From Dictyostelium discoideum (taxonomy: Eukaryota), in contig CM000152.2 of the NCBI GenBank assembly GCA_000004695.1, forward strand, positions 1,280,001 to 1,344,000: DNA of 64,000 nt, given 5' to 3'. A model generated the notes under the pieces. It was not told the origin of the DNA, searched no databases, and saw nothing but the letters and a program-made list of their open reading frames with translations. This document shows positions 43,127-52,654 of this stretch, piece by piece (position 1 is the stretch's first letter; every line of letters begins with the position of its first letter). The translations under genes and the position numbers were made by a program.

Positions 43127-46100
43127 TTATGGATCAATTGGGATGGCAAAAGGAGTTGTTATTGATGAATAAATTTCTATGCCAGAGATTGGGATAGCAA
43201 ATTTTGAATTATCTGAAGCCCATTGAATATTTAAAACTTTATCAGTTGATTGATCATTATTCCAAAAGAATGGACCTAATTTTTGATAGTATTGGTATTG
43301 AGGAGTAGTTCTTGTGAATGGTTCTTGATAGGCACCATCGACTTTAATTGTGTATAATGGAAGTGAAGTAAAAATGGAATTACCAGTAAATGAAGGATTA
43401 TAAGTGTATAAATAGAATTTGTATTGTGAATTTCCTGGTAACGTGATATTAATAGTACTTGGAATACTATTAATAACATCATTACTAAGGTATGTAGTTA
43501 ACATACTGATTGAATCAGTGGATGTTACTGGAGTGGTACCATCGGTTATAGATGATGGAGTTGTTGTTGTAATCTTTGAGAATAAACCAGTGGTAGTACA
43601 TTTACCTAAACTATTAACCCAACCACATTTAGTCCAAGAGTTACCAAAGATTGATAATGCACGACGAGTTGCTTCAACATCTGGTGTTAAATCAATACCA
43701 AGATAAAATGAATTACAAACTGAATCTGCAATATAGGTATTTGCATAGTATGAACCAGCTTCACTATAGGATGGAGATAGAAGTGCGTTATAGGATTTAG
43801 CAGAGACCATAACGGTATATTTTCCATTTGATGATGGAAGAGTAACAACATTTGATGTAAAAGTTTCATTTATAGTATATTGAGATGGAGATAGGATTAA
43901 GTGTGGAACTGTAGTTTGATAAACATCATTAACAATATAACTCATACTTTGACCATTACTATCAAGGTAATCAAAGTTTGGAATAAATGAGAAATTAATT
44001 TGATTTGCTGATAAAATTGATGCACCAAAGTTATACAATGGGAAAAAGTATGAAATTGTATTATCCAAATTGGTTTTAGTACCATTTACATTTGAAAGAT
44101 AAAGTTGATTTGTATATTTCTTTAAGAAATCAGAGGTATTTGAAAAATGTGAAAATTTAGAATCAACAATTGAAATATATTTACATTTCAATGATTGTGC
44201 AAAGAATTTATAATTCGATATTGAAATTGCATTCTTTATTGATACTGAATTATAGGTACCAGTGTGTGTATCAGTCTCGAAAATATATACTTTATCATTG
44301 ATGGATAAAGTATTGGCAATGTATGGTGAATCATAAAAGAGTTCAATATTTGGAGTAGTTGAACCAAGAGTTGTTGATGCTCTTTGACCAATGAACCAAC
44401 CACCTAAAAAGTTAATTTTAATTGGTGGTTGAGATGTATAGGAAACACGGAATTCAGCTTCACCAGCGAGGAAATGATTTTTAAAAACAACACTATTCCA
44501 AAGATTATTTGATTTATAATCTTGTGTATTATCTTGAGTAAGACCAGAATAAGTTCCTAAAAGGATATCAGAGGTTAAGCCAGCGATTGATGATCTTGAT
44601 TGAATTGGAATAACTTGGAATGCACCACCTTTAAATTTACCTTCAAATGCATTACCTTCATAGGTTGAATAGGGTGTAGTTGTAATGATACCACCATTAA
44701 TATAATCAATATCTGGATATGATCTTGATGATGGTGTACTCTTATCAGTATAAACAGAGATAAATGCATTGAAACTAATTGTAAATTGTTCAGTACCATA
44801 TAATAAACTAATACCACTAATACCATAACTTAATACGAAAGCATTACCACTTATGGTACCAAATGAACGTTTAATTCCAATATAAGCTCTTGGTGTTAAA
44901 CTTTGCTGATTGGTATAATCATTTAATGGTATAAACATATTATTTTGAATATTAACAGCAAGTTTGTTATGTAAAATTGTAATTGGATATCTATCTGATG
45001 GATTTGTACCAACATGAGTGATTGTATAGGTTGAATCTAATGTATAATCATCCAATGGTGATGATGTTGTATGACCAATATCAGAGAATACTGAATTTTC
45101 AATATTAACTGAAGAATCAAGTGTGAAAACCATTGAACTACTAAAAACACCACTAACAAATAAATTCTTTAAAAATGGACGCATTAAGATATAACCTGCA
45201 CCACCATAATTTGTACCATCTCTTGAATGATAAATACCAGATGCACCAGAAAGACCAGTGTAATAGTTACTAAGTGTATAATTTGGATTGAAATTTACAG
45301 CAGTTTGTAAGAGTGGACTAACCAATTTATATACTGGTTGATTTGAAGTTGGATAAGAGAATGATTTTAAAAATGTACCACCATATGAAGTGAAAGAGTT
45401 ATTTACACCAGTCCACATTGAACTTGTATCGAAACCACGTAATGTTACACTACCACCCAATGAAATAAATGATGATGTTTTTAATGGATCCCAACTTGGA
45501 TAATCGGTTGGATCAAAACCATTGATTACAATTGAATGATTTGAAGTTGATGCTGGAATTGATTCAACAACACCACCTGGGAAAATAATAACTTTTTGAC
45601 AAACCAACTTTGAATTAAATGTTGGATTTAAAATTAATCTACCTTTAACCAATAATGTTGGAATTGAATTTGATGAATTAACTGTAATTGTAATACCAGC
45701 TGGTACAATTAAAACACTATTTATATCTGTAATCATTGTTGAAATTGGATTATCTATTCTATCTATAGCTGGTGTAAGAAATCCTGTTGTTCTATAATTT
45801 GTGGTTGAACTAAGTGTTGAATTACCAGTAAATGAATATTTCTTTACATTTGTATTTGTCTCTAAATCTGGATAAAAATCACCTTTATAATTTGTATTTG
45901 TACTTCCTGGATAATAATCAACTTTAAAATGTGGTTGACCACTTATAGTAACACGAGCAGATGAAAAATCAAAACTATATAAACTTTGACCATTTGATTC
46001 TATCAAAAGAGAGAGATAGAGAGTTAATAAAATCTTGTTTTTTTTTTATTTTTATATTTATTTTTTCAAATCTAAAGAAAATTTACTTTTAGTTGATATT

Positions 46101-46147
46101 ATTAATAATATAAAAATTAAAGAAAAAATAAAAAGTAAAGATTTCAT
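43127..46147 (-). CDS. secreted parallel-beta-helix protein paralogous to the gdt-family ectodomain; exon 1 46087..46147 (signal peptide), intron 46000..46086, exon 2 43127..45999 (about 978 aa). No TM segment and no kinase domain.
   Basis: Exon 1 (MKSLLFIFSLIFILLIISTK) ends at A|GTAAAT. The acceptor ctctcttttgatag precedes AATCAAATGG, in frame with the 959 aa ORF. The body has many NxS/T sites and PbH1-like beta-helix repeats (VNIENSVFSDI, AVNIQNNMFIP, TISGNAFVLS, ISFNAFISV). It shares VIIFPGGVVES / DPLKTSSFISLGGSVTLRG with the divergent neighbour (LVILPGGNFKSES / DPLNFFPGILTLGGSLSILG). Confidence 0.7.
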
Positions 46148-46254
46148 CTTTTAAAAAACTTTTTAAATAAAATTTGGATATTCTGATAATCATTTATTCA
46201 ATTTAAATATTCTGGAATTCAAAACTCAAATCAATTTAAACAATTAAAAATAAA

Positions 46255-46385
46255 AATTAAGCCATTTTTTTATGGTGTGGGGGAGTGGGTTAAAATCTTA
46301 GGGGGTTTAAAAATATCTATGTTTAACTGATCCCCTACAAAAAAAGTCCCTCCATATCATCCCCTCCCATCCAAATCTATATCTT
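46255..46385. promoter_or_regulatory. GC-rich G-tract/C-tract island in the 1.45 kb spacer shared by the divergent paralog pair
   Basis: ggtgtgggggagtgggttaaaatcttagggggttt ... gatcccctacaaaaaaagtccctccatatcatcccctcccatcc: a G-rich half followed by a complementary-composition C-rich half. Confidence 0.3.
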
Positions 46386-46400
46386 ACTCTAAACTTTTTA

Positions 46401-46457
<57 letters not shown>

Positions 46458-50500: not shown

Positions 50501-51579
50501 ACATTTTTCTATGATAATCTTAATCAAGATTCAATTGAAATTTCATTTATCTCAAGAGGTGATATTTATTTAACTTCAATGGCTATTTATTCTTTAGATC
50601 TTGTATCATATGAAAGTAGTGATAGTAGTAGTAGTAGTAGTAATAGTAGTAGTAGTACTGGCAATGGTATTGGTGATATTGTAAATAATGAGGATAATCA
50701 TAAAAAATTAGTAATTGCATTATCAGTTTCAATTCCAGTTGCAGCATTATTAGTAATTTTATGTTTTGGTATTTTCATTTGTTACAATAATAATAAAAAG
50801 AATAAAAATGAAACCAAAGGAAAAGATATTGAAACTAATACTGATAAAAAAGATGATGAAAATGAAAATGAAAATTGTAAATTTCAATTCAAAGATGAAT
50901 TTTTAACAAATCCAAATGAAATTAATATTCAATTAAAAAAATTAATGATTAATAAATCATCAACATTACCACCACAATCAACAATTTCAATTGATACATC
51001 ACCATCATCTGAAAATACTACTTTCACTGAATCATTAACACCAAAGAAATCTGCAACTGTTAATGGTGAAATTGATTTTAGTAGAAATAGTACAAATGAA
51101 AGTACTGTTTCTAATTCTTCTTCTGAAAATAATAGTGATAATAACAACAATAATAATAATAAATGTAAAAAAGAAAAACTATCATCATTCCCAACAATAC
51201 CAGGTACAAATCTTACAAATATTCCATTAAATTTAGTTGGTAGAAAATCAAGAAATCCAGAAGATAAATATAGAACCAATAATGATATTTTAGTTTGTCT
51301 TCAAGAATCTCATTATTTTAAACCTGATGATCCATCAATACCAATAGAATTTAGTGAATCAGTTTTAGATTTTGGTAGAGGTTCAAAATGTTTAATCGAT
51401 GAAACTTACATTTATACAATCTCTGTTAAAAATAAATCAACTACTGATTATAATATTTTATTAATTTTACCTATTGATAATAATACTGGTACAATTTCAA
51501 CTGATACCCAATATTTTCAAATTAATGCTGGTGAAAGTAAACCAATTAGTTTTTCAATTAGTTTAAATTGTACAACAAA

Positions 51580-51616
<37 letters not shown>

Positions 51617-51645
51617 TTATTATTTATTTAAATTTTTACTAACAT

Positions 51646-51677
<32 letters not shown>

Positions 51678-52654
51678 ATTATTAGTATTTTGAAAAAATT
51701 GGAGTTTCAATTGAAGAATTAAATTATCATACATTTATTTGTGTACATATGGAATCAGAATTATCAACAAGATTAGATTTTTCAGAATTAGATTTTGATG
51801 AAATTTGTGGTCAAGGTACTTATGGAATGGTTTATAAAGGAAAATGGAGATCACAAGTTGTAGCAATTAAAATGATGAGAGTTGGCACTGTAAATTGTGA
51901 TGAAGTTTATAGAGAAATGGATATTATGGGTAAAATTCGTCATCAAAATGTTATCTCTTTTATTGGTTGTGTTGTATCATTAGAGCATCTTTGTATAGTT
52001 ACAGAGTTTTCACCAATTGGTTCATTGGGTGATTTAATTCATGGTGATAATAATCAAAAGAAATCCAACACCAACACCATCACCAACACCATCACCAACA
52101 CTAACACCAACACCAACACCAGTACTAGTACCAGTACCAAGCTAACTGTAAAACAAAAACTTAGAATTGCAATTGATATTGCTCGTGGTTGTCAATTCCT
52201 TCATCAGTGTGGTATTATTCATCGTGATTTGAAACCCGATAATGTATTAGTATTCGATATCAATCATAATGCTCCAGTTTGTGCAAAGATCTCTGATTTT
52301 GGAACTTCAAAGGAAACTAATGAATTCAGTAACAAGAATACCAATTGTGTTGGAACACCAATCTATATGAGTAATGAAATCTTGGAGAAAAAGACCTACG
52401 ATAATTCTACCGATGTTTACTCATTCGCTGTACTTTTCTATGAAATGATGATTGAAGAAGTACCTTTCTCTGAAATCGATGAAAAATGGGAAATACCAAG
52501 TAAAGTTATAAGTGGTTGGAGACCTACTAAAGGTTTAAATTCTTTAGATAGAGATATTAAAAACTTAATTAATATATGTTGGGCTCCTCATTCATTACCA
52601 TCTTTTGATGAAATCGTTTTCTCTCTTGTAAAAATATTTAAAAGATTTAATTAA
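47599..52654 (+). CDS. gdt-family receptor-like protein kinase (signal peptide, large beta-helix ectodomain, TM, cytoplasmic Ser/Thr/Tyr-kinase-like domain); exons 47599..47644, 47764..47994, 48093..51580, 51686..52654 (about 1577 aa)
   Basis: Exon 1 is MKTFLLIFLLICVCK|GTAAAT. Exon 2 covers the listed ORF 47862..48044. Exon 3 is the 1176 aa ORF and ends AAG|GTAAAT followed by (AT)n. Exon 4 is ORF 51749..52654, reached by the acceptor attag|TAT at 51685. The TM segment is LVIALSVSIPVAALLVILCFGIFICY. The kinase domain has GQGTYG, VAIK, HRDLKPDN and DFG. The overall architecture matches the Dictyostelium growth-differentiation-transition (gdt) family. Confidence 0.75.

Follow-up and report, generated by a model that had tools for sequence, protein, structure and literature searches.

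Why should the gene for a receptor-like kinase stand head to head with the gene for a secreted protein that shares part of its extracellular region? The question is raised by two divergently transcribed genes in the 64-kb stretch of Dictyostelium discoideum DNA analyzed here (contig CM000152.2; hereafter, the window): a minus-strand gene of the DG1041 family (gene A) and, on the plus strand, gdt9 (gene B). A first-pass annotation of this DNA had taken their ectodomains for paralogs produced by gene duplication, that is, a receptor and its soluble decoy; we find that the two belong to different multigene families, with 22% identity over one module and the rest unrelated. We propose that the window holds one instance of a conserved, divergently transcribed pair that consists of a secreted DG1041-family protein and a type I receptor-like kinase. 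Both proteins would begin with a CEMIP/TMEM2-type module (G8 plus right-handed beta-helix), with ectodomains that appear unrelated beyond it, and the common module would go back to ancient ancestry in the G8/beta-helix superfamily; the receptor's ligand-binding domain would not have been duplicated locally in recent times. The DG1041-gdt pair itself appears to behave as an evolutionary unit, and a joint role of the two proteins in one extracellular step may be the reason for its retention.

The gene models were obtained by reading the 5' ends and splice sites and then assembling the exons. Gene A (43127-46147, minus strand) is composed of exons 46147-46087 and 45999-43127, separated by an intron (46086-46000), with its stop codon at 43129-43127; the 977-residue product is an exact match to XP_647795.1/EAL68039.1, "DG1041 family protein" of D. 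discoideum AX4 (P0056). Gene B (47589-52654, plus strand; DDB_G0278879) is composed of exons 47589-47634, 47764-47994, 48093-51580, and 51686-52654; its 1577-residue product is an exact match to Q5VJL3/XP_001134573, "Probable serine/threonine-protein kinase gdt9". Because both translations are exact database matches, both genes are already annotated in D. discoideum. The identity with gdt9 bears out the earlier assignment of the plus-strand gene to the gdt family of receptor kinases; the divergent arrangement also stands as first drawn for gene A (46147 to 43127) and for the end of gene B (52654), but the gene B start codon is at 47589, 10 bp from the position first given (47599). The distance from one ATG to the other is 1441 bp.

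To compare loci, we fetched the genomic surroundings of DG1041 paralogs and orthologs and annotated these stretches by tblastn. A gdt gene is head to head with the DG1041 gene at eight of the nine group-4 DG1041 loci examined (the eight include orthologous sets): the window, the loci orthologous to it in D. firmibasis (L006) and D. citrinum (L007), loci L001, L002, L003, and L010 of D. discoideum-complex strains, and a D. purpureum locus (L005); the annotated gene-to-gene gaps at these loci range from 509 to 1501 bp. The gdt gene at L010 is gdt2, and the protein found there and AX4 DDB_G0270550 are identical; L001 also carries a likely gdt1 ortholog, convergent with the DG1041 gene and recognized by an identical ectodomain C-terminal segment. 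Adjacency and orientation are, then, kept across paralogous loci and species. When neighbor-joining trees are built for the DG1041 genes and for the gdt genes that face them, the branching order is identical (D. purpureum branches first, followed by the gdt9 group and by L001 with L002 and L003 as sisters), a pattern that fits duplication of both genes together. Some pairs are flanked by extra gdt copies, in tandem or convergent, and by a frameshifted gdt-like relic.

Two of these loci have further features of their own. In L001 (2648-9104 and 13205-18375), the DG1041 paralog P0009 lies between two gdt genes, one of which is the head-to-head neighbor (annotated with 2009 residues); the other, tail-to-tail gene (P0039, the apparent gdt1 ortholog) has a model with a kinase-like C-terminus that is absent from the 1176-residue AX4 gdt1 entry. 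In L010 (3252-5604), a gdt-like ectodomain is split over several frames and high-scoring segment pairs (annotated as genes of 459 and 272 residues) and has another gdt kinase gene on one side and the DG1041 neighbor of gdt2 on the other; this broken copy may be the Gdt3 pseudogene of the kinome paper.

The ratios of nonsynonymous to synonymous substitution rates (dN/dS), computed against the D. citrinum and D. firmibasis orthologs, are 0.18-0.25 for gene A, ~0.30 for the gdt9 ectodomain, and 0.09-0.12 for the gdt9 kinase domain (0.04-0.08 for the neighboring nagB gene); the extracellular parts of the pair evolve faster. By these ratios, gene A and gdt9 are both under purifying selection and functional. 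Positive selection of the kind found in recognition genes was also considered; the gene-wide values of 0.18-0.30 do not point to it.

The topologies of the two proteins differ as the first-pass annotation had supposed. In protein A, a signal peptide (residues 1 to ~24, interrupted in the gene by the intron; 45989-46147, minus strand) is the sole hydrophobic segment (Kyte-Doolittle hydropathy identifies only residues 1-19); the G8 plus beta-helix module (residues 113-486; 44603-45724, minus strand; the part homologous to gdt9 is residues 131-507) is followed by a family-specific, beta-rich C-terminal half (residues 510-977; 43130-44533, minus strand) for which the AlphaFold2 secondary structure is all-beta. 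The C-terminus (...SITTPFAIPIDP) is without a hydrophobic tail, so the minus-strand product does end, as first described, with neither a transmembrane (TM) helix nor a kinase domain. The first-pass annotation had itself raised the possibility of an overlooked downstream TM or kinase exon. A tblastn search downstream of gene A with the cytoplasmic parts of gdt9 found none, and P0002-P0004, which are the A-group proteins from D. citrinum, D. dimigraforme, and D. firmibasis, stop near the end of A, also without a hydrophobic tail; these two results rule out such an exon.

Membership of A in the DG1041 family (dictyostelid secreted or anchored proteins of ~1000 residues, e.g., DDB_G0269850 and Heterostelium album PPL_01093 and PPL_01101) is exact, and A has the full-length similarity that characterizes the family. 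The 30 proteins returned by a homolog search with A all come from group-4 Dictyostelium and form several groups of paralogs; identity between A and its paralogs is 43-55%, and in most cases the alignment covers 93-100% of A. Pfam has no match to gene A at E<=1, and a sequence-profile search of the PDB with the DG1041 alignment gave 0 matches at E<=10. Most DG1041 paralogs (e.g., DDB_G0269850, P0009, P0015, and D. purpureum P0020) extend past the end of A; the added part, made up of a Ser/Thr-rich linker plus a hydrophobic tail, suggests a glycosylphosphatidylinositol (GPI) or C-terminal anchor. Linker and tail are both absent from A, from its orthologs, and from the P0021-P0026 subgroup. Because A and its orthologs are without linker and tail, the gene A product is predicted to be soluble; because most of the gdt-paired paralogs are tailed, the DG1041 family is probably not a soluble decoy in general.

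The gdt9 protein has a hydrophobic N-terminus (residues 3-21, the signal peptide) and a single TM helix (residues 965-983; 50708-50764, plus strand; hydropathy peak 2.84, LVIALSVSIPVAALLVILC), that is, type I topology. Its kinase domain (residues 1291-1566; 51791-52618, plus strand; Pfam PK_Tyr_Ser-Thr E 2.7e-46, Pkinase E 2.6e-45) is tyrosine kinase-like (TKL) in type, and the GxGxxG, VAIK, HRD, and DFG motifs can all be read in the translation; the plus-strand gene thus continues into a TM helix and an intact kinase, as had been claimed. The gene B ectodomain is 100% identical to that of gdt9 over its whole length and 35-40% identical to those of other gdt-family proteins, mostly over 91-98%, including gdt1 and DDB_G0270550. 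With signal peptide, conserved 'gdt' extracellular domain, one TM helix, and TKL kinase, gdt9 is a member of the GDT receptor-like TKL kinases (gdt1, gdt2, gdt4 ... gdt9) (PMC1420674); the gdt9 of the window differs from the family in having Leu in place of the conserved subdomain-XI Arg. A role in the growth-differentiation transition has been documented only for gdt1 and gdt2 (PMC8262924, PMC1420674). Gdt proteins potentiate the inhibition of proliferation by polyphosphate, and extracellular polyphosphate has less effect on gdt1, gdt2, and gdt4 mutants (PMC8262924); for the "highly conserved extracellular domain" of the gdt proteins, a ligand is still only presumed (PMC1420674).

Two observations on the cytoplasmic part of gdt9 stand apart from the pairing. 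The window has I1552 (ATA, 52574-52576) and L1559 (TTA, 52595-52597), where the protein of another D. discoideum assembly (P0060) and GenBank AAS55398 (P0062) both have Arg; R1559 is the conserved subdomain-XI Arg of 'CW..P..RPSF', and the difference is either one between strains or an error in the reference. AAS55398 departs from the window further at residues 283, 1274, and 1275. In addition, the region that precedes the kinase (residues ~1150-1285; window 51263-51775) has no Pfam match and is conserved across the gdt paralogs and an H. album gdt-like gene (33% identity, 138 residues, E 1e-17); it may be an undescribed beta-rich juxtakinase domain.

How much do the two ectodomains share? Pairwise BLASTP of A against gdt9 gives one collinear high-scoring segment pair (26% identity over 208 residues, E 3e-5), and hhalign, run with a profile of 17 DG1041 proteins and one of 16 gdt ectodomains, aligns A131-507 with B106-462 (probability 94.9%, E 4e-8, 22% identity); the score of 77.8 compares with 18.6-31.0 (probability <=2.3%) for reversed or column-shuffled controls. 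The similarity, whose absence on formal alignment would have spoken against the first-pass annotation, is above chance by both methods, and the two motif blocks that it had pointed to are real and are aligned by hhalign (A131-209 with B106-175). The aligned part of gdt9 (residues 106-462; 48131-49201, plus strand) becomes residues 53-431 (47874-49108) when the comparison is made with the set of G8 proteins described below. Neither the C-terminal ~450 residues (hhalign probability 0.7%) nor the N-terminal leader segments (3.9%) of the two ectodomains can be aligned, so that the homology spans ~350 of ~950 ectodomain residues: the claim of homologous ectodomains holds for this N-terminal module but not for the remainder. 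The description of both as rich in N-glycosylation sites does not hold. Given the N/S/T-rich composition, sequons are not enriched in either (10 in A against 17.8±3.7 in shuffled sequences; 18 in the gdt9 ectodomain against 21.3±3.9).

As a separate observation, the ends of the two ectodomains (window 43130-43330 and 50560-50700) look alike in strand pattern (A, ...LNIQWASDNSKFAIPISGIEIYS; gdt9, ...IEISFISRGDIYLTSMAIYS; pattern '...I.I.[WF]......I..[ST].[IA][EI]IYS') and are reminiscent of malectin-like or carbohydrate-binding-module-like jelly rolls; the profile comparison (probability 0.7%) does not support a malectin-like relationship of these ends and leaves the resemblance unexplained.

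The nature of the shared module emerges from a search of 1.84 billion representative proteins with the DG1041 family profile. This search returned 14 proteins at E<1e-30, including H. album family members, and a further ~85 G8-type beta-helix proteins whose match is confined to profile positions ~105-430; gdt proteins were not among the matches at E<=1e-3. When nine of the matches were scanned with Pfam, eight had G8 and five of those also CEMIP_beta-hel (the one without a match is an H. album family member); some of the scanned G8 proteins also carry Big_7, PG_binding, or dockerin domains. Against a 60-sequence G8 set, hhalign gives DG1041 a probability of 99.6% (E 2e-24) and gdt a probability of 98.8% (E 9e-17), although the set was picked by the DG1041 profile and so favors the score of A; each family scores higher against this set than against the other family. 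The Pfam G8 model (PF10162) itself matches neither window protein at E<=1; six of 20 DG1041 members have sub-threshold matches (best E 0.003), and none of five gdt members has a match. The strings 'GTN..RY', 'GTE', and 'DY..GNGI' are common to both families and the G8 consensus. The consensus 'GTNQ.GRYP.H.HH', 'EdG.E', and 'G.G.W' is partly retained in DG1041 ('DRYPITLLHN', 'YGTEQF', 'DIDYINGGI') and further degenerate in gdt ('QRYRNSL..E', 'FGTE', 'MDYG.EGNGI').

The AlphaFold2 models contain a right-handed beta-helix in both A (predicted local distance difference test score 73, predicted template modeling score 0.76) and the gdt9 ectodomain (66 and 0.58, respectively); together with the profile results, the models make "parallel beta-helix ectodomain", the term used in the first-pass annotation, correct for both proteins. 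A and gdt9 are related at the level of the superfamily (G8/CEMIP type) and did not arise by a single receptor ectodomain having duplicated recently. The best structural neighbors of A are polysaccharide lyases, hydrolases, and depolymerases, plus TMEM2. The G8 plus beta-helix fold of CEMIP/TMEM2 type is one that binds and processes polysaccharides or polyanions; the fold and its relatives suggest a glycan or polyanionic ligand. That such a ligand would fit the reduced polyphosphate sensitivity of the gdt1, gdt2, and gdt4 mutants (PMC8262924) is speculation.

The divergent intergenic region (46148-47588, 1441 bp) consists mostly of poly(A), poly(T), and ATT simple sequence, ~10% GC outside two GC-richer patches, in a window that is AT-rich throughout. 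One patch (~46260-46380) is 110-230 bp upstream of gene A, and the other (~47200-47320) is 270-390 bp upstream of gdt9. In a blastn-short comparison with six orthologous or paralogous intergenic regions, the only conserved block is a G/C-rich promoter-proximal element upstream of A (46260-46318; GGTGTGGGGGAGTGGG... on the plus strand; 86% identity over 59 bp to D. citrinum), which we take to resemble the G-box/CA-rich promoter elements of Dictyostelium; the gdt9-proximal patch has no match in the orthologous regions, and no element is common to the paralogous pairs. Rfam and transfer RNA scans of the intergenic and flanking regions gave no match, which rules out known RNA genes as an explanation of the two patches.

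What keeps the two genes together? If protein A were a classical decoy, the secreted DG1041 protein would have kept the receptor's ligand-binding module and would compete with gdt9 for its ligand, much as soluble receptor ectodomain isoforms do. A membrane receptor and a secreted protein with a homologous extracellular module are indeed what such systems contain: A is secreted and predicted to be soluble, B is membrane-anchored, the genes are adjacent and divergent, and the G8/beta-helix module with several polar motifs is common to both families. However, a decoy is normally highly similar to its receptor over the entire ligand-binding ectodomain, and here a single scaffold module of ~350 residues is shared at only 22% identity while the C-terminal ~450 residues are unrelated; the DG1041 and gdt families are not mutual nearest relatives in the comparisons made; and the gdt-paired DG1041 paralogs have hydrophobic C-terminal tails that suggest a membrane or GPI anchor. 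Moreover, there are true kinase-less gdt forms (P0045, P0050, and P0051) that cover 93-97% of the gdt9 ectodomain at 35-38% identity and would be better decoy candidates than A. We consider a decoy role for A improbable. The structural neighbors of A, and sequence neighbors among G8/CEMIP_beta-hel proteins of which some have dockerin, Big, or PG-binding domains, could also indicate a secreted protein that degrades or binds polysaccharides of bacterial prey, the extracellular matrix, or the slime sheath, independently of gdt9 signaling. We regard this, too, as quite unlikely: the consensus 'GRYP.H.HH' is only partly kept in DG1041 and lost in gdt, there is no full-threshold Pfam match, and the conserved pairing would be left unexplained.

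The main rival is neutral linkage: the genes would have become neighbors long ago, possibly when a G8/beta-helix gene underwent an inverted duplication, and segmental duplications would then have copied the adjacency, with no functional interaction between the products. Block duplication predicts the congruent trees, and the tandem and convergent gdt copies and the degenerate copy around the pairs are signs of local duplication activity; but orientation and short spacing are kept at eight loci (orthologous sets included) and across the split between D. discoideum and D. purpureum, and both members are under purifying selection at the window locus. We judge linkage of this kind possible but somewhat unlikely. 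Given the identities, topology, limited module homology, fold, and conserved, co-duplicated pairing described above, we assign a probability of about 0.5 to a functional reading of the pairing, in which the DG1041 protein and its gdt neighbor act together in an extracellular step; possible roles for the DG1041 protein are those of a binding partner, a co-receptor, or a binder or modifier of what is probably a glycan or polyanionic ligand. Several points weigh against this functional reading. Segmental duplication alone would co-copy neighbors and give congruent trees. There is no gdt gene within 10 kb of the DG1041 gene at L004 (P0021, of the subgroup without tails), and in H. album (group 2) the DG1041 homologs PPL_01093 and PPL_01101 flank a gdt-like receptor kinase at ~7 kb each, with three genes between, so the families are linked there but not adjacent; adjacency is thus absent at both, as neutral linkage would have it. 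Between the genes, what look like two separate promoters, each proximal to one gene, are kept apart by ~800 bp of simple sequence, and only the A-proximal patch is conserved, so the region does not by itself indicate co-regulation; the lack of a common conserved intergenic element is likewise in favor of neutral linkage. The G8 comparison is affected by the choice of its set, and the literature searched has no mention of DG1041 and includes Dictyostelium gdt9 in the kinome survey only; one transcriptome/proteome supplement has no entry.

A more specific form of the functional reading, which we find rather doubtful and offer tentatively, is that DG1041 and gdt proteins are matched extracellular partner cassettes. 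Each gdt protein (gdt9, gdt2, and the products of the gdt1-locus genes) would have its own DG1041 partner that binds, presents, or processes a cue of glycan or polyanionic nature (for example, a polysaccharide from food or polyphosphate outside the cell) by means of the CEMIP/TMEM2-like beta-helix. If so, the cassettes would be the source of the extracellular input, long missing, of the Gdt pathway, by which cells are held in growth. The G8 plus beta-helix start of the gdt ectodomain points to a glycan or polyanion cue, and the systematic head-to-head pairing, including that of gdt2, makes members of the uncharacterized DG1041 family candidates for pathway components. Were the pairing purely historical, what remains would be two annotated genes with an old domain in common. 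The recurrence of the DG1041-gdt pairing is new here; we found neither this cassette nor the G8/beta-helix nature of the gdt ectodomain described in the searchable literature.

The nearest conceptual analog in the same organism is tgrB1/tgrC1, in which TgrC1 is the ligand and TgrB1 the receptor (PMC12142906). These are also adjacent paired genes ('paired tgrBC genes') that encode surface or secreted proteins with related extracellular domains, and the pairs duplicate locally as units (PMC12745789). The Tgr fold, however, is not G8/beta-helix, one member of the DG1041-gdt pair is a kinase, the gene-wide dN/dS of 0.2-0.3 indicates no gene-wide positive selection, and an interaction between DG1041 and gdt proteins would be hypothetical.

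Among the neighbors of the pair, a gene that resembles glucosamine-6-phosphate isomerase (nagB-like; 41299-42102, minus strand) lies downstream of gene A; it had been described as convergent with A but is on the same strand, that is, in tandem, and the order gdt9 <-> DG1041 -> nagB is kept in D. firmibasis (L006) and D. citrinum (L007). No further DG1041 or gdt ectodomain copy was found by tblastn in the 64-kb window. A protein-kinase-like coding segment (18998-19612, minus strand) is 26% identical to the gdt9 kinase (E 2.5e-15) and unrelated to the gdt ectodomain. In H. album, a gene near a DG1041 homolog (L008, 5351-6700) has the Pfam domain 'DG1062_N', which represents another family named after a Dictyostelium 'DG' gene.

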